This document shows positions 4,275-18,274 of a DNA stretch of 64,000 bases, piece after piece; within the stretch, counting starts at the first letter, position 1; each line of letters starts with the position of its first letter. The DNA is from Nostoc sp. (lineage in GTDB: Bacteria; Cyanobacteriota; Cyanobacteriia; Cyanobacteriales; Nostocaceae): positions 32,001 to 96,000 of the forward strand of contig JBALDB010000018.1 in the NCBI GenBank assembly GCA_036918135.1. Direction: 5' to 3'. The position numbers were made by a program, and so were the translations under genes. The notes under the pieces were generated by a model that saw only the letters and a program-made list of their open reading frames with translations, was not told where the DNA came from and ran no database searches.

Positions 4275-4378
4275 TGTAGTATCTCCTTGACAATATGTAT
4301 TTTATATATTACAAATGTAGTATGAGAACAAAAGCTTTTCTAAAAGGCTAAGGCAAAACATCTCAGAACCTAGAAAAC
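4275..4378 (+). promoter_or_regulatory. Putative promoter/leader of the RNA array: TGTAGTAT repeats, TTGACA, boxB-like hairpin and boxA-like element
   Basis: TGTAGTAT 4275 and 4316; TTGACA 4287; hairpin AGCTTTT-CTA-AAAGGCT 4333-4349; GAACCTAGAAAAC 4366-4378. Confidence 0.5.
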
Positions 4379-4401: not shown

Positions 4402-4482
4402 GGGGTCGCGATTGGTGTTCGACTGCTCCGAAACCAACAAACGGACGGTAGCAGGATTCGGGTTCAATTCCCGACGACTCCA
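4402..4482 (+). ncRNA. Mini tmRNA-like RNA (tRNA-like domain only)
   Basis: GGGGTCG/CGACTCC-A acceptor with G3.U70; unpaired D-loop ending TTCGAC; helix CTGCT/AGCAG; T-arm TCGGG-TTCAATT-CCCGA; no tag ORF. Confidence 0.7.
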
Positions 4483-4499
4483 CTGACTTCTACTTGTTT

Positions 4500-4706
4500 G
4501 GGTCTGTAACTCTAATGGTAGAGCGCCCAGATTCACTTGTGCTCTGACAGAAAAAGCTTACATACTTGCTCAAAGGTAGAGCGATCGTCTCTAAAACGAT
4601 AAGTGCAGGTTCAATTCCTGCGGTGTAACCACAGCTTTTTCAACTCGCACGAAGTGTGAGTGCAACTCTCACAGGGAAGGTATCGGTTCAATTCCGATCA
4701 GATCCA
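4500..4706 (+). ncRNA. tRNA-like RNA whose anticodon arm is replaced by scaffold cassette 1
   Basis: Acceptor GGGTCTG/CAGATCC-A; D-arm ACTC-TAATGGTA-GAGC; T-arm ATCGG-TTCAATT-CCGAT. Confidence 0.7.
4534..4656 (+). ncRNA. Scaffold cassette 1 carrying a tRNA body with CUA anticodon
   Basis: GTGC..GAAAAAGC-TTACATA..GCTTTTTC-AACTC-GCAC; D-arm GCTC/GAGC; ATCGT-CTCTAAA-ACGAT; GCAGG-TTCAATT-CCTGC. Confidence 0.75.
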
Positions 4707-4732
4707 CTAAATAATTTGTAATTCGTAATTAA

Positions 4733-4948
<216 letters not shown>

Positions 4949-4961
4949 AATATTTAGTTAA

Positions 4962-5141
4962 CCATGCCCTAACAGAAGAAGCATACATACACATTCATAA
5001 CGATCCTAAGGTAGTAAAATTCGAGCGATCAAACTAGCGAAGTATGATTTATAAATTTTTTGCAGATTTAGCATACGTGCCCACTGCCAATAGTTGGTAA
5101 GAGCGATCGTAAGCTGTAAAAAGCTTCTTAAACTTGTACGG
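4962..5141 (+). ncRNA. Scaffold cassette 2 carrying a permuted 23S rRNA domain IV (H67-H71) mimic
   Basis: AAGAAGC/GCTTCTT stem; ATAACGATCCTAAGGTAGTAAAATTC vs 23S ATAACGGTCCTAAGGTAGCGAAATTC. Confidence 0.7.
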
Positions 5142-5156
5142 ATTAATTGAAGAATT

Positions 5157-5300
5157 AATTCCGCGCCCTGACTTGTAAAGCATACAAACATATATCCGGT
5201 AACGGAATACAGGTTCGATTCCTGTCGCTCCCTTTGATGGGAGCGTAGCCAAATTGGTAAAGGCAACTGTGAAAACTGCTTTGCTAACTTGTGCGGAATT
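5157..5300 (+). ncRNA. Scaffold cassette 3: circularly permuted tRNA (YrlA-like Y RNA architecture)
   Basis: T-arm ACAGG-TTCGATT-CCTGT; acceptor CGCTCCC-TTTGAT-GGGAGCG closed by a loop; D-arm GCC-AAATTGGTAAA-GGC. Confidence 0.8.
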
Positions 5301-5361
5301 TCAATTATTTAAAATAGTAGTGTTTAGAGCAAGCCTTAGTGATTTTTCAAAACTAAAACTT

Positions 5362-5491
<130 letters not shown>

Positions 5492-5649
5492 TATAAATAT
5501 TAGATTTGGCAAAATTTTGATTGAGTGGAGGAAACTTATGCTCAAAGCTTTTAAAGACAGATTTTAAATAAAAAATCTTAATTTTAAAGCTATTAACTGG
5601 AATTAAAAACAATACTATTTATTGCAATTTAATATGATTTGAGGCTGCT

Positions 5650-6030
5650 ATGTCTGTGAACACTCTAGAAATTTTAGAGCAAATCAAGTCTCTAAATGTC
5701 AATGAAACCGCTCAATTAGTAAAGCAGATTGAAGCAACTTTCAATGTCGATATATCCACACCTAAATTCCTTAAGATTGACAAGCGAGATGAGGATGAAA
5801 CTCAACCGCAGATTCAAACGGAATTTGATGTCTTGTTGGTATCGGTTCCAACAGAGAAAAAGATTGCCTTACTCAAGGTCATCCGGACGGTGACTGGACT
5901 GGGACTCAAAGAAGCAAAAGACTTTGTAGAATCCCTGCCTCAAGTAGTTCAAGCAGGACTGAATCAAGAAGCGGCTGAAATTCTTAAGCAGCAGCTAGAG
6001 GAAACAGGAGCAGTTGTTTCTCTGATGTAA
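5650..6030 (+). CDS. rplL: Divergent ribosomal protein L7/L12 paralog
   Basis: TEFDV..KKIALLKVIRTVTGLGLKEAKDFVE C-terminal domain; no rplJ/rplA/rplK adjacent. Confidence 0.85.
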   Translation: MSVNTLEILEQIKSLNVNETAQLVKQIEATFNVDISTPKFLKIDKRDEDETQPQIQTEFDVLLVSVPTEKKIALLKVIRTVTGLGLKEAKDFVESLPQVVQAGLNQEAAEILKQQLEETGAVVSLM

Positions 6031-6102
6031 CAGAATTAGTCAAACAGGGAGTGTTGACTGCTGAGTTACGAATTCTCACTATCTTCCCAATCCTTGGCAG
6101 TT

Positions 6103-6180
6103 GTTGCTGCGCCCCGATAGCAGAAGCTTACATAACTCTGCATAAGTTATACACGATGCTTCTACAACTTGCGTGGTGAC
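6103..6180 (+). ncRNA. Scaffold cassette 5 with a minimal anticodon-like hairpin
   Basis: GTTGCTGCGC/GCGTGGTGAC; AGAAGC-TTACATA..GCTTCT-ACAACTT; cargo ATAACT-CTGCATA-AGTTAT. Confidence 0.65.
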
Positions 6181-6223
6181 TGTATCGCCCCGCGTGCAAC
6201 ATCTGCCTCCTCATCCATCATAA

Positions 6224-7672
<1,449 letters not shown>

Positions 7673-7807: not shown

Positions 7808-8914
7808 CTAAACACCAAATAGGTACTTAGCAATGCTTTTATTTTTCATCAGAATGAATACAGCTAACCAACTCATGATAAAAGTGGGTAGAGAAAATGC
7901 TAATTGAGAAATAAAAGTTACTTCATCTAATAACTGAGGTTGAGTTTTCTTCAGATAAATCTCCATAAAATTAATTCCAAATAGGTGTATCAAGTAAATT
8001 CCAAAAGAACATAATGCTAAATTTCTTATGACGCTGTTTGGTTTTAAGTAATTCGATAAAACAATACCGTATAATAAAAGAGAATATCCCAGAAAAACTT
8101 CCCGAAAACCAGTAAGTATTGGGTTACTATAAACGTCAGCAATAAGAAATAAACCTAATAACAAGTAAGCATATACGAGTTTCACACGCAACAATGAAAA
8201 GTTGGTTTTAAGAAGTAAATACCTTAAAGTCATTGCAATAAAAAAGTAAGGTAAACACCTCAATAACCATGCTACTTCTATAGATATAAACCTCAAAAAC
8301 TCATTTTTAGAAGGCTCGTAATTCACTAGATTAAATAAATTATTAAAAGCTATATCGTTATGTAAATCTACTGTATTTCCAGTAATTAAAAGCAGGTTGT
8401 AGAGGATGAGGCTCAACAGAGACAAACTAGCTAATATTTTAAGTCCAATTTTCGGTTTTGCGAAGTAATTTGCAAATATTATGAGCGAAGTACCTACTAG
8501 CAATAGCGGTAAATAGTATAATTGATATGATGCTTTTCCATAAAATATAATTAAAAAAGGATCTCCTAATAGATGATTTAATTCTTCTTTTTGATTTGAT
8601 GCTGAAAACATAATTATTTTGGCAATCAGATAAATAACTGTCCAAACTATATATGGTATTAGGAGACGCCGACATCTTGCTTTCCAATAAGTTAATGAAA
8701 AGTCAGCATTCGACTTACAAATCATGAAGTAGAAAGATGCAGCTAAGAAAAAGGGAACAGCAAAACTAAATAGATATTGTATCTCTTGGGAAAAGTAACT
8801 TGCACGATCCCGATTTGGATCGGCTGAATGTAGTAAGACAACTGCGTATGCCGCGATTCCTCGGCACAAATCAACACCCGATAGCCTTGGTTTTGCCTCT
8901 ATTTTTGACTGCAT
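7808..8914 (-). CDS. Acyltransferase family 3 membrane protein
   Basis: DLCRGIAAYAVVLLH, AVPFF, RRLLIPY, SFGIYLIH; very AT-rich. Confidence 0.85.
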   Translation of the reverse strand: MQSKIEAKPRLSGVDLCRGIAAYAVVLLHSADPNRDRASYFSQEIQYLFSFAVPFFLAASFYFMICKSNADFSLTYWKARCRRLLIPYIVWTVIYLIAKIIMFSASNQKEELNHLLGDPFLIIFYGKASYQLYYLPLLLVGTSLIIFANYFAKPKIGLKILASLSLLSLILYNLLLITGNTVDLHNDIAFNNLFNLVNYEPSKNEFLRFISIEVAWLLRCLPYFFIAMTLRYLLLKTNFSLLRVKLVYAYLLLGLFLIADVYSNPILTGFREVFLGYSLLLYGIVLSNYLKPNSVIRNLALCSFGIYLIHLFGINFMEIYLKKTQPQLLDEVTFISQLAFSLPTFIMSWLAVFILMKNKSIAKYLFGV

Positions 8915-9240: not shown

Positions 9241-9549
<309 letters not shown>

Positions 9550-9735
9550 TGAAATCATTCTGCGTATGCAGATAAAGGTTTTGATGCTCTGAGTAATTTA
9601 GCTTTTTTGTCTTTGTTGAAATAAGGCTGTAAATTAAAGGGTTTAAGATCCGCTTTGTAGGCATAACTAGCAGCCAAAATATTTACCGGAAAGTAACAAG
9701 TGTTAATTGTAGTATAATGTAGTATTAGAATCTCA

Positions 9736-9938
9736 TGCGTGCCCCAACTCGTGGAGCCTACATATTAGTACGAGAGGAAGGTAACACTGCCGAATGCAGT
9801 GGGCGTTAGTGAACGGGGAGTGCGAAGAACCTGGAAAGTGGGCTTAGAAGTAGCCATCTTTGAAAGAGTGTGTAACAACTCACCAGCGGAGTCCCTCTAG
9901 TAACTGAGAAAACGCAATGCTCCACCAACTTGCACGCA
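9736..9938 (+). ncRNA. Scaffold cassette 6 carrying 23S sarcin-ricin loop and H42-H44 GTPase-centre mimics
   Basis: TGCGTGC/GCACGCA; GTGGAGC/GCTCCAC; AGTACGAGAGGA 9767-9778; GGCTTAGAAGTAGCCATCTTTGAAAGAGTGTGTAACAACTCAC. Confidence 0.8.
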
Positions 9939-10030
9939 GAATTATACAGTAATCTTAAATTATTCGTTAGAACCAAGATACCCGACTTCTTTTGAAAAGT
10001 TGGGTATCTAAACCCTACTGAGCGATAAAA

Positions 10031-10423
10031 TTAAAGTTTACTTTCAGTCTTTGACTTTAATACCTGTATCGCTTTGAATCCTTCTATAGTCTGACCTAAA
10101 AATATCATGGGAATAATCAAGCCAAACGGTTTACCTGTTTGAATCGTATTGTAAATGCCAGTTAACGCATTTAGCGACATCAATCCTACTGCAATACCTA
10201 GTGCAATTTTTGATTTACGTTGTACAAAAAAACCTAGAACTAGATAGAGTAAACCAAAACCTAAAAACCCAATTCCTAATATTAGATAATCAGGCAATCG
10301 ATTACCAACGATAAAGAATATTATGCTTAGGAAAATACTCAAAATTCCAATTGCGTAAACTGCACGATAAGCAGATGCTAACTTTTTTCTGGACTCTGAC
10401 ATCTGTTGTATTTCGGTAGTCAT
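10031..10423 (-). CDS. Small membrane protein (about 4 TM), unknown function
   Basis: 130 aa hydrophobic ORF. Confidence 0.65.
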   Translation of the reverse strand: MTTEIQQMSESRKKLASAYRAVYAIGILSIFLSIIFFIVGNRLPDYLILGIGFLGFGLLYLVLGFFVQRKSKIALGIAVGLMSLNALTGIYNTIQTGKPFGLIIPMIFLGQTIEGFKAIQVLKSKTESKL

Positions 10424-10551: not shown

Positions 10552-11382
10552 ATGACTGACATCCGTAAGCTAATCAACCAAATTGCTAGCGCAGAAGCAC
10601 AGTTGTGTAATACTCAATTTCTTGCGCCTTGTGTAAAAGGTGGACGAGTTCGCACACGAGTAGTAGGGATGGTCTATACCTTCACACCAAAGCCGAATAA
10701 ATTTGAAGGTTGGGGTATTTTTCAGCCGGTGGATGAGAAGATAGCAATGGTTGTGGAAGAGGCAGATTTACCTCAAATTGCCGAATACCTGCAACACTTT
10801 CCCCAAATACGGCTGCGGCTAGCATACCAACTGCGGGGACAAAGTTGGTTAGCATACCCCGTGAATGAAGCAGATATACGTCAACGGTTGCAGGTGGTTA
10901 AACCGATCGCCATTCATCTAGTAACTGAAAGTATTATTTTTGACCAAATCATCGCCCGTTGGAATGGACAGTCCTGCTGGTTTGAGGAAATCGATCATCG
11001 TACCGATCCGGCTATTGTTGAAACTCTGCAATCAGCTGTTAAGCAACTGATTCCCGTTGAAGAATTGCAATTTAAAGGCATAACGCCAGAAATTCGCACA
11101 GTCTATGAATTAGCAACACGGCAAATTGAAGGCTTTGGGCAACCCCAACAGGATGAAAAGCGATTGAGAAAGGCATTGCAGATGGGTGGCGGTGAATTAA
11201 AGCAGTTTCACGATCGCGGTGATTACTGGACAGTGGACTGGACAACTGCTGATGGTGTTCGCCACAGTAGTGCGATCGCCAAAACTGACTTGACTGTAAT
11301 CAGTTCTGGTATTTGCCTAAGTGGATACGATCGCAACTTTGACTTGCAATCGTTAGTTGGTGTAATGGAACAACAAGAGTAG
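10552..11382 (+). CDS. Hypothetical protein with possible E2-like C-terminal Cys motif
   Basis: 276 aa ORF 24 bp upstream of ThiF; SSGICLSG near C-terminus. Confidence 0.7.
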   Translation: MTDIRKLINQIASAEAQLCNTQFLAPCVKGGRVRTRVVGMVYTFTPKPNKFEGWGIFQPVDEKIAMVVEEADLPQIAEYLQHFPQIRLRLAYQLRGQSWLAYPVNEADIRQRLQVVKPIAIHLVTESIIFDQIIARWNGQSCWFEEIDHRTDPAIVETLQSAVKQLIPVEELQFKGITPEIRTVYELATRQIEGFGQPQQDEKRLRKALQMGGGELKQFHDRGDYWTVDWTTADGVRHSSAIAKTDLTVISSGICLSGYDRNFDLQSLVGVMEQQE

Positions 11383-11406: not shown

Positions 11407-12045
11407 ATGAGTATCTTTTTTCACGAACAGCTTTACCGCAGCAATGCTGTGATGGCAAAGTTGAAAAACTATCCTGTAACAATTTGTGGGGCGGGGGCGT
11501 TAGGGGCTAATATTGCTGAGAATATGGCTCGGTCTGGTTTTGATAAACTGACAGTAATCGATTGCGATCGCATTGAGGAGCGTAATCTTTCCACCCAGCC
11601 TTACTACCGTTCCGATGTTGGAGCATTCAAAGCAAAAATATTGGCAAACAATTTATACCGAGCAATTGGTACTAAAGTTGATGCTAAAACCAAAGAATTG
11701 ACATCAGCAAATGTCAATCAACTACTCCAAGATAGTCAATTAATTATTGATGCTTTTGACAATAGCGTAGCACGTCAATTAGTAAAAGATTATGCCACTC
11801 AATTTAGCATTCCTTGTCTTCATGCTGGGCTAGCAGTTGATTATGCAGAGGTAATTTGGAATGATGTTTATCGCGTTCCTTCTGAGGTTAATGATGATGT
11901 TTGTGATTATCCTTTGGCACGAAACTTAGTAATATTAACCGTTGCTGTAGTATCGGAAGCGATTGTTTCATTTATTGCCACAACAGAACGGCGTAACTTC
12001 ACCATCACTTTGAAGGATTTGACTGTTCAACCTTTGTTTTTGTAG
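11407..12045 (+). CDS. ThiF/MoeB/E1-family adenylyltransferase
   Basis: ICGAGALG, DCDRIEERNLSTQ, KAK, IIDAFDN; candidate catalytic Cys in VCDY. Confidence 0.9.
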   Translation: MSIFFHEQLYRSNAVMAKLKNYPVTICGAGALGANIAENMARSGFDKLTVIDCDRIEERNLSTQPYYRSDVGAFKAKILANNLYRAIGTKVDAKTKELTSANVNQLLQDSQLIIDAFDNSVARQLVKDYATQFSIPCLHAGLAVDYAEVIWNDVYRVPSEVNDDVCDYPLARNLVILTVAVVSEAIVSFIATTERRNFTITLKDLTVQPLFL

Positions 12046-12127: not shown

Positions 12128-12358
12128 GTGCCTAAGAAAATTAGAGAACTGAAGGCAATGGTAGCAAAAGTTGGATATATTCTTCAGCCAGGTCGAGGAA
12201 AAGGAAGTCATACGTATTGGAAACATCCGTTATTACCTGAAGAACCTCTGACTATTCCAGGTAAGGAGGGAGATGATGCTCCGCTATATTTGGAGAAGAA
12301 CATTCAACGGGTTCTCAAAAGGTTGGAAGAGTTTGAAAGCGATGAAGGTGAATCATAA
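12128..12358 (+). CDS. hicA: HicA-family toxin
   Basis: GKGSH motif, 76 aa. Confidence 0.85.
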   Translation: MPKKIRELKAMVAKVGYILQPGRGKGSHTYWKHPLLPEEPLTIPGKEGDDAPLYLEKNIQRVLKRLEEFESDEGES

Positions 12359-12589
12359 ATGAGTTATTACTACAGCATGGTGATTCAGTGGTCAGAGGAC
12401 GATCGACTATTCTTAGTGCATTTGCCAGAGTTCCCCTGGCAGGAGTTTCATACGCATGGCAAAACTTACGAAGAAGCTGCCAAAAATGGGCAGGAAGTAA
12501 TTGAGGCGTTTGTTGAGATGCTGCAAGAAGAGGGAAAACCACTACCAGAACCCAGAATGCTTCCTAGACGACCATTACAGGTTGCTTAG
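12359..12589 (+). CDS. hicB: HicB-family antitoxin
   Basis: IQWSEDD..LPEF..THGKTYEEAAKNGQEVIE..PLPEP; abuts hicA. Confidence 0.85.
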   Translation: MSYYYSMVIQWSEDDRLFLVHLPEFPWQEFHTHGKTYEEAAKNGQEVIEAFVEMLQEEGKPLPEPRMLPRRPLQVA

Positions 12590-15598: not shown

Positions 15599-16159
15599 GG
15601 TAGTTGATACTTTTTGCCTGTTTATAGGTGCTATCAAACAGTTGCACCTCCCGCTGTGGATTATTCGATCCCAATTGACCACTAGAGCGATCGTGAAAAT
15701 ACTTTCACTTGCAGATTTAACCCCCAATAACCAATACGTCCTCTCAAACGCACGCGCACCAGGTGTTCTGCCTGTACCCTTGCTCGGTTGACAATGCATC
15801 ATGCTATTAATGGTTGAAGAGAATCTGGTTATCATCGAATTTCTGTAGTATTTGTAGTTTAAATTTATTGTATAATACAACTTGTAATATTAATTTGTCT
15901 AGTGCCAATATTTCTAGAGGATGACGACAGATAATCTGCCGAATATCCAAAGCTTGAACAGCATATTCTCTAATTATGACACTTTCACAGCCATTAGTTG
16001 CCCCAAATGAATTTTCTGTAAAGATATCAGCTCGAGTTTATCCAATTAATGAGGACGGTATTAACTGTACCGATGAATGGGACTATTGGTATTAAATTTA
16101 GTAACCTAGAAAAGTAGATGTTTATATTTCCAGATAGAGCCACTCGACTATCAGTCTAA

Positions 16160-18274
<2,115 letters not shown>

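Follow-up and report, generated by a model that had tools for sequence, protein, structure and literature searches.

The window analyzed here, a 64-kb stretch of a Nostoc sp. genome, contains a locus in which a 203-nt noncoding RNA (ncRNA; 9736..9938, plus strand; covariance-model match 9731-9943) lies 2 kb downstream of the gene for its presumed partner, a 477-aa protein predicted to be a divergent Ro60/TROVE-vWA protein (6239..7672, plus strand). Sibling RNAs that share the ends of the ncRNA flank this gene and the gene for an L7/L12 paralog of 126 aa (5650..6030, plus strand). On the other side of the ncRNA are the genes for a conserved 276-aa protein (10552..11382, plus strand) and for a ThiF/E1-like adenylyltransferase of 212 aa (11407..12045, plus strand; Pfam ThiF 1.1e-28), which are syntenic with each other. 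The locus bears traces of rearrangement: an acyltransferase gene (7808-8914, minus strand) now separates the Ro60-like gene from the ncRNA, and a partial duplicate of the Ro60-like gene (residues ~253-310; 9346..9516, plus strand) has been left behind. In another genome (G002, locus L044), the order is Ro60-like gene, ncRNA remnant, 276-aa gene and E1 gene, without the insert.

The ncRNA is built as a closed scaffold around two rRNA-like modules, with all elements on the plus strand. The closing stem P1 (9736-9742 / 9932-9938) surrounds both modules, and the ends proposed in the original prediction, i.e. 9736 and 9938, coincide with this helix. P1 is separated from P2 (9752-9757 / 9919-9924) by an internal loop with CCCAACUC on one side and ACCAACUU on the other, and these elements are followed by an invariant UACAUA(Y) (9759-9765), the sarcin-ricin loop (SRL) module, the hairpin P3 (9785-9789 / 9797-9801), P4 (9803-9807 / 9911-9915) and an H42-H44-like arm (9815-9898). 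Folded as a single sequence, 9730-9945 shows no unusual stability (z = -1.12; 30/200 shuffles equally stable); support for the structure comes from comparative data only. In an alignment (A3) of 92 full-length copies found with a covariance model of the ncRNA (R1), 94.9% of the cells are paired and 25 of the 47 pairs have changes on both sides, a value as high as this being reached in 0/500 shuffles, while slid controls have 28-45% paired. Similarly, compensatory changes are present at 19/47 pairs in a BLAST-ascertained alignment (A1). For P1, the internal loop and P2, two-sided changes occur at 8/14 pairs in the 92-copy alignment, and the loop sequence is conserved.

The SRL module (9766..9783, plus strand) consists of UAGUACGAGAGGA and, possibly, a flanking helix of 3 bp. 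As originally predicted, AGTACGAGAGGA is present at 9767-9778 on the plus strand; it occurs once in the 64-kb window and has matches in 0/100 shuffles. Together with the two U's on its 5' side, it is identical over 14/14 positions to the SRL in the 23S rRNA of a genome of the same genus (L048, positions 2642-2655), and its AGUACGAGAGGA core with the bulged-G motif and the GAGA tetraloop is identical to that of the 23S SRL. Because the pattern used to ascertain 80 loci itself contained the SRL, the invariance of the SRL is judged solely from the 34 BLAST-found copies of A1 and 10 copies found with the covariance model, in which the 12-mer is kept in 34/34 and 10/10 cases, respectively. The putative SRL-closing helix, UAU/C (9763-9765) with GUA (9781-9783), is 98% paired without covariation, and RNAalifold prefers another invariant pairing. 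Unlike in 23S rRNA, the helix closing the SRL has at most 3 bp, and the H42-like stem of the second module is also shortened.

The second module (9815..9898, plus strand) corresponds to the GTPase-associated centre (GAC) and comprises a lower H42-like stem, a k-turn-like motif, an upper H42-like helix (9830-9834 / 9883-9888) and an H43/H44 three-way junction (9831-9886). Within this module, 9831-9886 matches the Rfam model LSU_rRNA_bacteria (RF02541; model positions 1093-1148; gathering score 50) with 51 bits, and these 56 nt represent the top of H42 together with H43 and H44; the archaeal LSU model RF02540 gives 48.4 bits (E 7e-13). The whole of 9815-9898 had been proposed to follow H42-H44; this is the case for the Rfam-matched part, while the flanks (9815-9830 and 9887-9898) are only loosely similar to lower H42 in a local alignment. 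The register of the lower H42-like stem has alternatives that, by eye, appear to depend on the subgroup. The host's own 23S rRNA was not found with RF02541 among the 12 of 135 candidates scored, and a GAC-like 50-mer of the host genome (at C56) was rejected as not being 23S rRNA; the 23S rRNA of L048 was used as the reference instead. The GAC core is identical to this reference at 27/31 positions and, beyond the SRL and GAC patches, the ncRNA has no significant similarity to it. Thus, the ncRNA is not a full-length 23S rRNA: the Rfam match is limited to 56 nt, and its flanks are scaffold and other modules. In 23S rRNA, the GAC and the SRL are ~1,550 nt apart, whereas they are 50 nt apart in the ncRNA.

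The GAC module not only scores above the Rfam gathering threshold but also keeps the triple positions of 23S rRNA, as the SRL module keeps the core of H95. The E. coli numbers used in the following were assigned to the ncRNA through the Rfam alignment and are taken to be those in common use. The equivalent of G1071 is G in 90/92 homologs and that of 1091-1100 is G-C in 92/92; moreover, the U1060/A1088 and 1082/1086 contact positions are retained. The equivalents of 1072/1092/1099 are U/U-A in 87, C/C-G in 3, U/U-G in 1 and C/U-A in 1 of the 92 homologs, and the ncRNA of the window has U/U-A where the host 23S rRNA, for which L048 of the same genus serves as a stand-in, has C/C-G. In the GAC, 1071.(1091-1100) and 1072.(1092-1099) are described as base triples (PMC2952862, PMC8614978). 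One pair of the upper H42-like helix is U-A in 47 and C-G in 45 homologs. The k-turn-like motif in the flanks (C9823-G9891, bulge 9824-9826, G9827.A9890 and A9828.G9889, plus strand) is recognized by its sequence signature alone, with the C-G present in 90/92, the G.A in 86/92 and the A.G in 89/92 homologs and with a variable bulge; Kt-42 is described as located in H42 (PMC2952862). The equivalents of A1067 and A1095 are A in 80/92 and 87/92 homologs, respectively. These nucleotides, which are contacted by factors and by thiostrepton, vary more than the fold does, which fits selection for an L11/L10-binding fold better than selection for GTPase contacts.

The full-length 203-nt element is present in 23/36 genomes of the same genus and also occurs in other cyanobacterial orders. 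At homologous loci, both rRNA-like segments are conserved and their helices covary. Rearrangements and truncated copies were found in L037b, L031 and L044 and for the second copies in L056, L066 and L107. Scanning viral contigs with the pattern yielded 0 matches. A Clostridia MAG (L114) matched the pattern but not the covariance model and was rejected as a homolog. In a Ktedonobacterales MAG (L067), we found a shorter scaffold RNA that carries only the SRL.

The terminal scaffold of the ncRNA recurs in five sibling RNAs within the window, all on the plus strand. Among the R1 matches listed, 151 have E<=0.01 and come from 90 sources, and 59 of them score 18-47 bits; the weaker matches that were inspected have the terminal scaffold around different cargo. 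In the window, the highest-scoring sibling (5361..5492; 42.5 bits with R1) has both scaffold arms, which enclose a complete tRNA-like cargo (called as a tRNA at 5389-5463, anticodon GCG). It is followed by a sibling with a YrlA-like cargo consisting of a T-arm, a stem-loop and a D-arm (5155..5302; 33.5 bits), in which 5208-5264 matches Rfam YrlA with 24.1 bits, i.e. under the gathering score of 69, by a second sibling with a tRNA-like cargo (4531..4659, cargo 4558-4630, anticodon CUA; 22.4 bits), by one with an unassigned cargo (4956..5147; 19.1 bits) and by a scaffold RNA that is nearly devoid of cargo and immediately precedes the Ro60-like gene (6101..6182; 17.9 bits). In addition, a lookalike of the tRNA-like domain of tmRNA is present at 4402..4485 (plus strand); it scores 43.2 bits with Rfam tmRNA, for which the gathering score is 47, and has the model ends 1-374 joined. 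Altogether, the ncRNA is a conserved, structured, discrete and rRNA-like RNA that shares its scaffold with its siblings. The original prediction had interpreted the union of the two modules as selected mimicry in a scaffold rather than as an rRNA remnant, and the covariation, the co-variation of the GAC triple positions and the scaffold common to the sibling RNAs all argue for this interpretation.

In the 477-aa protein, Pfam recognizes only the vWA domain, and TROVE is without a score. By contrast to this silence of the TROVE model, a profile of the protein family matches Ro60 structures in the PDB (Ro60 9nen, 2.6e-14; Ro60 of phage phiLo 9l5y/9kop, 6e-11; Xenopus Ro 1yvp, 2e-10; Rsr 2nvo, 4e-6), and 7/30 family members are matched by Pfam vWA_Ro60. 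In Foldseek searches of the PDB with an AF2 model of the protein (pLDDT 87.5), the 12 best matches are all Ro60/TROVE proteins (TM 0.53-0.63). Based on this model, the protein has the fold of a Ro60/TROVE-vWA protein. The family has 3,068 matches at E<=1e-5 and, among the matches listed, the 120 with a name are all called vWA or hypothetical. The Ro60-like gene is within 4 kb of the ncRNA in 38/80 loci. In a phylum-wide draw of 151 genomes, 11 have the ncRNA, 11 the Ro60-like protein and 10 both, the exceptions being G137 with only the ncRNA and G117 with only the Ro60-like protein; in some of these genomes, the two are 8-57 kb apart or on separate contigs.

We favor, with more confidence than doubt, that the ncRNA is the RNA component of a Y-RNA-type RNP and that the cargo is a mimic of the site at which factors bind to the ribosome. 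Y RNAs are known for mimicking tRNAs, and the stem formed by their ends has a conserved internal loop or bulge to which Ro60 binds. As in the YrlA and Yrn1 (RF02553) Y RNAs, the ends of the ncRNA form a stem with an internal loop, and the cargo mimics an RNA of the translation machinery; as for bacterial Y RNAs, the gene lies beside a gene for a Ro60-fold TROVE-vWA protein, is often multicopy and is linked to stress, and the T and D arms of a sibling in the locus are YrlA-like. Unlike in Y RNAs, the cargo is rRNA-like (H42-H44 and SRL) and not tRNA-like, and the Ro60 homolog is too divergent for Pfam TROVE. The loop also differs, with both A1 and A3 having G(C/A/U)CC(Y)AA(Y) in place of GNCGAA/CGAA; a conserved 5' motif GNCGAA(N0-1)G (PMC4201824) and a conserved CGAA motif (PMC12135203) have been described for Y RNAs. 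In a check for the 5' motif of Y RNAs, GUCCGAAC was found only in the Ktedonobacterales variant L067, and RF02553 (YrlA) had no match at E<=10 in 9500-10100. Neither Rfam 15 nor the literature searched yielded a description of an rRNA-mimicking Y RNA or of an ncRNA that combines GAC and SRL.

A competing possibility, which we regard as unlikely, is that the ncRNA acts on its own, as a regulatory or sponge RNA whose mimicry of the factor-binding site does not involve the Ro60-like protein, with the shared stems serving as signals for processing or stability. This would be compatible with the unmatched canonical Ro-binding motif, with G137, in which the ncRNA occurs without a detected Ro60-like gene, and with the SRL-only scaffold RNA of the Ktedonobacterales MAG, which has no TROVE gene within 4 kb and lies beside an ORF that is not Ro60-like. 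However, the Ro60-like protein is encoded in 10/11 genomes with the ncRNA but in 1/140 without it, non-adjacent pairs included; the conservation of the scaffold loop and of UACAUA among the aligned homologs far exceeds the need of the helices alone; and the YrlA-like sibling is built on the identical scaffold.

Two tandem TGTAGTAT boxes (9708-9715 and 9718-9725, plus strand) with a 2-nt spacer lie upstream of the ncRNA and overlap the predicted TATAAT, which is indeed present at 9713-9718; they are a candidate TrcR-type operator for translational stress and, with TATAAT, the candidate promoter of the ncRNA. Two further TGTAGTAT boxes (4275-4282 and 4316-4323, plus strand) lie upstream of the array of scaffold RNAs. 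TGTAGTAT is described as a footprinted TrcR site over the -10 of the Anabaena trn operon (PMC10272220), and tandem 9-nt repeats with a spacer of 2-3 nt are described over the -10/TSS (PMC8421152). Judged from its sequence, the candidate promoter of the ncRNA has the arrangement of the TrcR regulon, i.e. boxes of the TGTAGTAT type overlapping the -10, and TGTAGTA is found within 70 nt upstream in 34/92 homologs. A generic sigma-70/terminator scan of 9550-10100 gave no plus-strand promoter, there being no -35, and no intrinsic terminator. In 34/80 loci, the ncRNA is amid at least 3 tRNA genes, mostly 18-34; tRNA arrays with the ncRNA inside have 20-34 genes per 8 kb, and such arrays are reported to be stress-induced in Anabaena (PMC8421152). 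The ncRNA resembles the TrcR/tRNA-array system in genomic context, in having TGTAGTAT over the -10 and in the theme of spare RNAs for translation that are induced under translational stress; term searches of the main texts of the papers on this system (PMC8421152, PMC10272220) gave no mention of TROVE, Ro60, Y RNA, 23S or L12. Coverage by RNA-library contigs of relatives is confined to 9736-9946; one starts 4 nt ahead of 9736, and two short ones (165 and 179 nt) represent the ncRNA alone. No such contig was found over 9600-9727 or 9952-10050, and contigs cannot show absence; no sequencing run had the exact ncRNA stretch, the best word share being 0.22. The contigs, which do not prove transcription, weakly suggest that the ncRNA is expressed.

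The genes downstream of the ncRNA bear on a second alternative. In other genomes, the 276-aa gene usually follows the ncRNA directly; it is within 4 kb in 34/80 loci and starts 18 nt past the ncRNA in L065 and L095, while the E1-like gene is present in 29/80 loci. Pfam, NCBIfam and PADLOC gave no family for the 276-aa protein, Atlas gave no lead of use, and its AF2 model is poor (pLDDT 45). This synteny raises the question of whether the ncRNA is a cis-acting leader in which the GAC copy binds free L11 or L10(L12)n and controls a 276-aa/E1-like operon, with SRL and scaffold being accessory. Elsewhere in the genome, the 5' UTR of a gene for an AAA+ ATPase contains an SRL-less GAC-like element behind a TGTAGTAT box, which points in the same direction, and the L10 and L11/L1 operon leaders are likewise short RNAs that copy a protein-binding site of the stalk region off the ribosome. 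However, these known leaders are cis-acting mRNA leaders in r-protein operons and copy one site, whereas the ncRNA has a closed scaffold, which is common to its tRNA-like siblings, adds the SRL, has the full H43/H44 fold and is often far from ORFs inside tRNA arrays. None of the 34 loci in tRNA arrays has the 276-aa gene within 4 kb, and in the window a convergent membrane-protein gene intervenes between the ncRNA and the 276-aa gene. Moreover, the neighbours of the ncRNA include no r-protein operon, no Rfam r-protein leader matched at E<=10, and a leader function leaves the invariant SRL without a role. We therefore consider such a leader improbable and less plausible than a sponge RNA.

The tRNA arrays could also suggest a function at the level of DNA, in which the element mimics 23S rDNA and thereby serves the HNH endonucleases of these arrays as a decoy or homing target, HNH homing endonuclease genes being described as conserved beside L-arrays (PMC8421152); the compensatory pair changes and the closed scaffold, which argue for selection on RNA structure, and the confinement of rDNA identity to short patches make this highly implausible. 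Finally, an rRNA pseudogene remnant or recombination scar without a function of its own, as the two short stretches near-identical to 23S rRNA and the rearrangements and truncated copies around the locus might suggest, is the least credible explanation and already contradicted by the covariation and the base-triple co-variation: only 14 and ~56 nt are 23S-like, these derive from sites ~1,550 nt apart in 23S rRNA, the whole 203 nt are conserved across orders with compensatory changes, and the GAC copy differs from host 23S rRNA (L048 as a same-genus stand-in) by a coordinated base-triple swap.

Returning to the Y-RNA-type RNP, we suggest the following model. The two-helix scaffold with the internal loop at the ends of the ncRNA would probably be the binding site of the Ro60-like protein. 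Instead of a tRNA-like cargo, one multi-helix junction holds two modules, i.e. a miniature L10/L11 stalk base with the H42-like stem, the k-turn-like motif and the H43/H44 junction with its triples, and the SRL. In the 50S subunit, the GAC stalk base and the SRL together form the docking site for translation GTPases. In Nostocales, the ncRNA would be transcribed from its own TrcR-type promoter and, if controlled by TrcR, derepressed by translational stress, while in Oscillatoriales and others it would be transcribed within long, stress-inducible tRNA-gene arrays. During translational stress, the Ro60-like RNP may then display an off-ribosome copy of the factor-binding site, for which L11, L10 with the L7/L12 paralog, translational GTPases, SRL- or GAC-directed ribotoxins and antibiotics are candidate ligands. 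The role of the ncRNA could be that of a decoy or sentinel, or it could tether such a ligand to the Ro60-like protein, in parallel to tRNA-like Y RNAs.

If true, this model would make Ro60 RNPs a general platform for displaying look-alikes of the translation machinery, and the TrcR/tRNA-array response of cyanobacteria to translational stress, the mechanism of which is only partly understood, would gain an RNA and a Ro60-type protein. It also points to a widespread family named vWA or hypothetical as hidden Ro60 homologs. A compact natural RNA with stalk base and SRL would, in addition, offer a ready-made minimal system in which GTPase docking, L11/L10 binding, the action of thiopeptides and the recognition by ribotoxins can be studied off the ribosome.

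More tentatively, and with doubt outweighing confidence, we speculate that a single, interchangeable scaffold allows the Ro60-like RNPs of cyanobacteria to present mimics of every RNA in the translation machinery, namely of tRNAs, of the tRNA-like domain of tmRNA and of the stalk base combined with the SRL. In this scenario, the mock docking site together with L11/L10 and the L7/L12 paralog would, under translational stress or attack, trap or activate translational GTPases off the ribosome or serve as bait that senses and absorbs SRL- or GAC-directed ribotoxins and antibiotics, and the vWA and E1-like system would act in signalling or repair. It is only a guess, prompted by a C-terminal Gly and the E1-like gene nearby, that the 66-aa ORF at 4748-4948, which has no Pfam family, is ubiquitin-like. 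The L7/L12 paralog is within 4 kb of the ncRNA in only 7/80 loci, the flanks of which are short. It has the C and N domains of Pfam Ribosomal_L12 and matches NCBIfam TIGR00855 with 101.6 bits (cut-off 84.4); a second, canonical L7/L12 copy in the genome adjoins L10 and is 48% identical to the paralog, with a different hinge.

Similarity of the ncRNA (9736-9938, + strand) to rRNA is concentrated in its two modules, the sarcin-ricin loop (SRL) and the GTPase-associated centre (GAC). AGTACGAGAGGA at 9767-9778 occurs only once in the window, and none of 100 shuffles yielded it. The stretch 9831-9886 is matched by the Rfam bacterial LSU model (51 bits; gathering score 50; model positions 1093-1148), and with the archaeal LSU model (48.4 bits) all positions align to the H42-top/H43/H44 consensus. 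Compared to a same-genus 23S rRNA (L048:834-3723), used in place of the host's own, there are only two meaningful similarities, i.e. 27/31 positions in H43-H44 and 14/14 at the SRL (UUAGUACGAGAGGA), and these sites are ~1,550 nt apart in the 23S rRNA. Together with the TATAAT at 9713-9718, these matches confirm the coordinates and description of all three elements in the original prediction.

The ncRNA is a selected RNA. Among 60 relatives searched by BLAST with the 203-nt sequence, full-length copies (89-99% identity) are present in 23 of 36 genomes from the same genus, and eight genomes from other genera in this order also have copies (71-84%); 70-nt matches at 76% identity, numbering 3-5 in each complete genome, are the true 23S genes. 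In an alignment of 34 distinct copies, the SRL 12-mer is unchanged and RNAalifold gives 47 pairs, 19 with compensatory changes. When one genome per species was scanned with a pattern, at least 121 stretches matched, and 78 of the 80 fetched contain the full ncRNA. Their labels are cyanobacterial nearly throughout, including Nostoc, Microcoleus, Moorena, Okeania, Fischerella, Roseofilum and Lusitaniella, the others being one contig labelled Acidobacteriota and two labelled “uncultured bacterium”. Of 151 genomes drawn evenly across the phylum, 11 have the full ncRNA. Among 92 copies aligned to the covariance model of the ncRNA (R1), 94.9% of cells are paired compared to 28-45% with the partners slid, two-sided changes occur in 25 of 47 pairs, and 0 of 500 shuffles reach any of the pairing or covariation measures. 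Because the 80 loci were picked by a pattern containing the SRL, its invariance was judged from copies identified otherwise, 34 by BLAST and 10 by the model, and the 12-mer is present in every one. Full-length copies across genera, the extent of pairing and the two-sided changes speak against debris; and with the SRL kept at homologous loci and the helices covarying, the proposal of selected mimicry rather than an rRNA remnant is supported. Truncated or degenerate second copies are present at four loci (L037, L056, L066, L107) and remnants in two genomes (G002, G025), while a second copy of 278 nt (G134:C23:732159-732436; 160 bits) has a ~65-nt insertion somewhere in the structure.

From the terminal helix P1 (9736-9742/9932-9938), a conserved internal loop leads to P2 (9752-9757/9919-9924), followed by an invariant UACAUA(Y) segment, the SRL segment, hairpin P3 (9785-9789/9797-9801) with covariation in all four pairs, P4 (9803-9807/9911-9915) and the H42-H44-like arm (9815-9898). 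The helix closing the SRL has at most 3 bp, and covariation cannot decide its pairing. In the upper H42-like helix, U-A alternates with C-G (47 vs 45 copies) and G-C with A-U among the 92 copies. GAC equivalents were mapped via the Rfam archaeal LSU alignment and are given in E. coli numbering. The equivalents of G1071 (90/92), G1091-C1100 (92/92) and U1060/A1088 (91/92) are retained. At the 1072/(1092-1099) triple, 87 copies have U/U-A, three have C/C-G and two are mixed, while the host 23S rRNA has C/C-G. These residues form stacked base triples linking the two GAC loops (PMC2952862, PMC8614978). The retained contacts and the U/U-A or C/C-G triple therefore indicate that the ncRNA keeps the GAC tertiary fold, with its triple bases exchanged in concert compared to the host C/C-G. 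At the spot corresponding to Kt-42, which is in the middle of H42 (PMC2952862), the H42-like stem has a k-turn-like signature with C9823-G9891 (90/92), a variable 3-nt bulge, G9827.A9890 (86/92) and A9828.G9889 (89/92).

P1, the internal loop and P2 make up a scaffold that, judged from sequence, is shared by a family of RNAs with differing cargo. Among the 151 R1 matches listed, 59 are weaker (18-47 bits); in those inspected, the alignment is confined to P1, the internal loop, P2 and UACAUAC, which enclose different cargo. Searching the window using R1 with filters off gave five scaffold matches: two with a whole tRNA-like sequence (4531-4659, anticodon CUA; 5361-5492, anticodon GCG), one with T-arm, stem-loop and D-arm in YrlA order (5155-5302; Rfam YrlA 24 bits, sub-threshold), one with cargo of no recognised type (4956-5147) and one almost empty (6101-6182). 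At 4402-4485 is a stretch similar to the tRNA-like domain of tmRNA (Rfam 43.2 bits, sub-threshold against a gathering score of 47), and several more tRNA half- or arm-like pieces are interspersed with scaffold RNAs at 4486-4720. A Ktedonobacterales MAG contig has a shorter scaffold RNA without GAC (L067:3933-4052, - strand; 44 bits) with a well-formed SRL hairpin (GGC-C-AGUACGAGAGGA-AC-GCC), a second hairpin and a 5' loop with the classic word for Ro binding, GUCCGAAC; the 4 kb on either side contain no TROVE gene.

The ORF at 6239-7672 (+) encodes a 477-aa protein with only vWA recognised by Pfam and with named relatives, among the matches listed, labelled only vWA or hypothetical. A 30-member family profile matches human Ro60 (2.6e-14), Thermus phage phiLo Ro60 (6e-11), Xenopus Ro (2e-10) and D. 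radiodurans Rsr (4e-6). Of the 30 members, 7 score with Pfam vWA_Ro60, and the 12 best PDB matches of an AF2 model (pLDDT 87.5) are Ro60/TROVE structures over nearly full length. These matches show the protein to be a divergent Ro60. At 38 of 80 loci, its gene and the ncRNA are no more than 4 kb apart. Of the 151 genomes drawn, the protein likewise occurs in 11 and both occur in 10, and the pairs include ones 8-57 kb apart or on separate contigs. As related genomes are not independent samples and a single mobile island may carry both, this is a strong association rather than proof.

The best reading is that the ncRNA is a Y-RNA-type RNP component with a miniature ribosomal factor-binding site as cargo. 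It resembles Y RNAs in way of working and genomic place, and is a putative Ro60 binder; however, it is not classed as a YrlA member because the published Y-RNA motif is unmatched and Ro60 binding is presumed. The cargo could capture L11, L10 with the L12 paralog, GTPases, or toxins or drugs directed at the SRL or GAC. This L7/L12 paralog is encoded at 5650-6030 (+) and is 48% identical to the product of the canonical gene, which adjoins L10 on another contig. Because fold-defining residues are more conserved than the factor-contacting adenines (A1067 equivalent 80/92; A1095 equivalent 87/92), r-protein binding would be slightly favoured over factor contact. Rival explanations are a cis leader, a Ro60-independent sponge, a DNA-level decoy and, least of all given its conservation, debris. 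We found no earlier description of such an ncRNA in Rfam 15 or the literature searched.

Two tandem copies of TGTAGTAT, at 9708-9715 and 9718-9725, span the -10. In the Anabaena trn operon, footprinting placed TrcR on this word where it covers the -10 (PMC10272220), and repeats in tandem, spaced by 2-3 nt and covering the -10/TSS, give translational-stress induction (PMC8421152, section 22). The word is within 70 nt upstream in 34 of 92 homologs, all of the Nostocales type TGTAGTAT-NN-TGTATTAT, and two further boxes (4275, 4316) precede the scaffold-RNA array. In Microcoleus, Moorena and others, the ncRNA is within tRNA-gene arrays (18-34 genes per 8 kb), the “L-arrays” of PMC8421152; term searches of this paper and PMC10272220 gave no TROVE, Ro60, Y RNA, 23S or L12 in the main texts. 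The exact ncRNA sequence is in no public run searched. RNA-library contigs of close relatives cover 9736-9946 only; one of 1,100 nt starts 4 letters ahead of 9736, and two (165 and 179 nt) are the ncRNA alone, a weak hint, not proof, of a stable small RNA.

In Oscillatoriales loci (e.g. L058, L090, L129, L092, L042:15324-15390), a conserved Shine-Dalgarno-like AAGGAGGU upstream of the ncRNA is followed by a start-like codon, a stop within ~15-30 nt and then GCGATCGC; this might be a mini-mRNA initiation-region mimic or a real micro-ORF. Elsewhere in the host genome, a second GAC-like (H43/H44) element without SRL or scaffold (G000:C56:190500-190600, - strand; L049 ~4500-4600; R1 46.6 bits, model 83-181; 84% identity to ncRNA positions 90-139) is in the 5' UTR of a gene encoding an AAA+ ATPase of 400 aa, has a TGTAGTAT box ~130 nt upstream and is shared with genome G034. 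The published table of the TrcR regulon includes an AAA ATPase (all0263). TrcR-like words (TGTAGTAT, TGTAGTTT, TGTATAAT, TGTAATAT) cluster at 15844-15885, ~360 nt upstream of an NAD-dependent DNA ligase (LigA) gene (16238-18274).

Downstream of the ncRNA, synteny extends to genes for a conserved 276-aa protein of unrecognised fold (34 of 80 loci) and a ThiF/E1-like protein (29 of 80). In the window, a membrane-protein gene is inserted downstream, and an acyltransferase gene (7808-8914) and a duplicated Ro60 fragment upstream. This fragment (~9346-9516; residues ~253-310), beside the acyltransferase gene, is sequence evidence pointing to local rearrangement. A conserved 66-aa ORF within the RNA array (4748-4948, + strand; C-terminus ...AVYG) matches no Pfam family; that, alongside the E1-like gene (11407-12045), it might be a ubiquitin-like modifier is only a guess. 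Just past the E1-like gene, a small ORF pair (12128-12589) resembles, by eye only, a HicA/HicB-type toxin-antitoxin.
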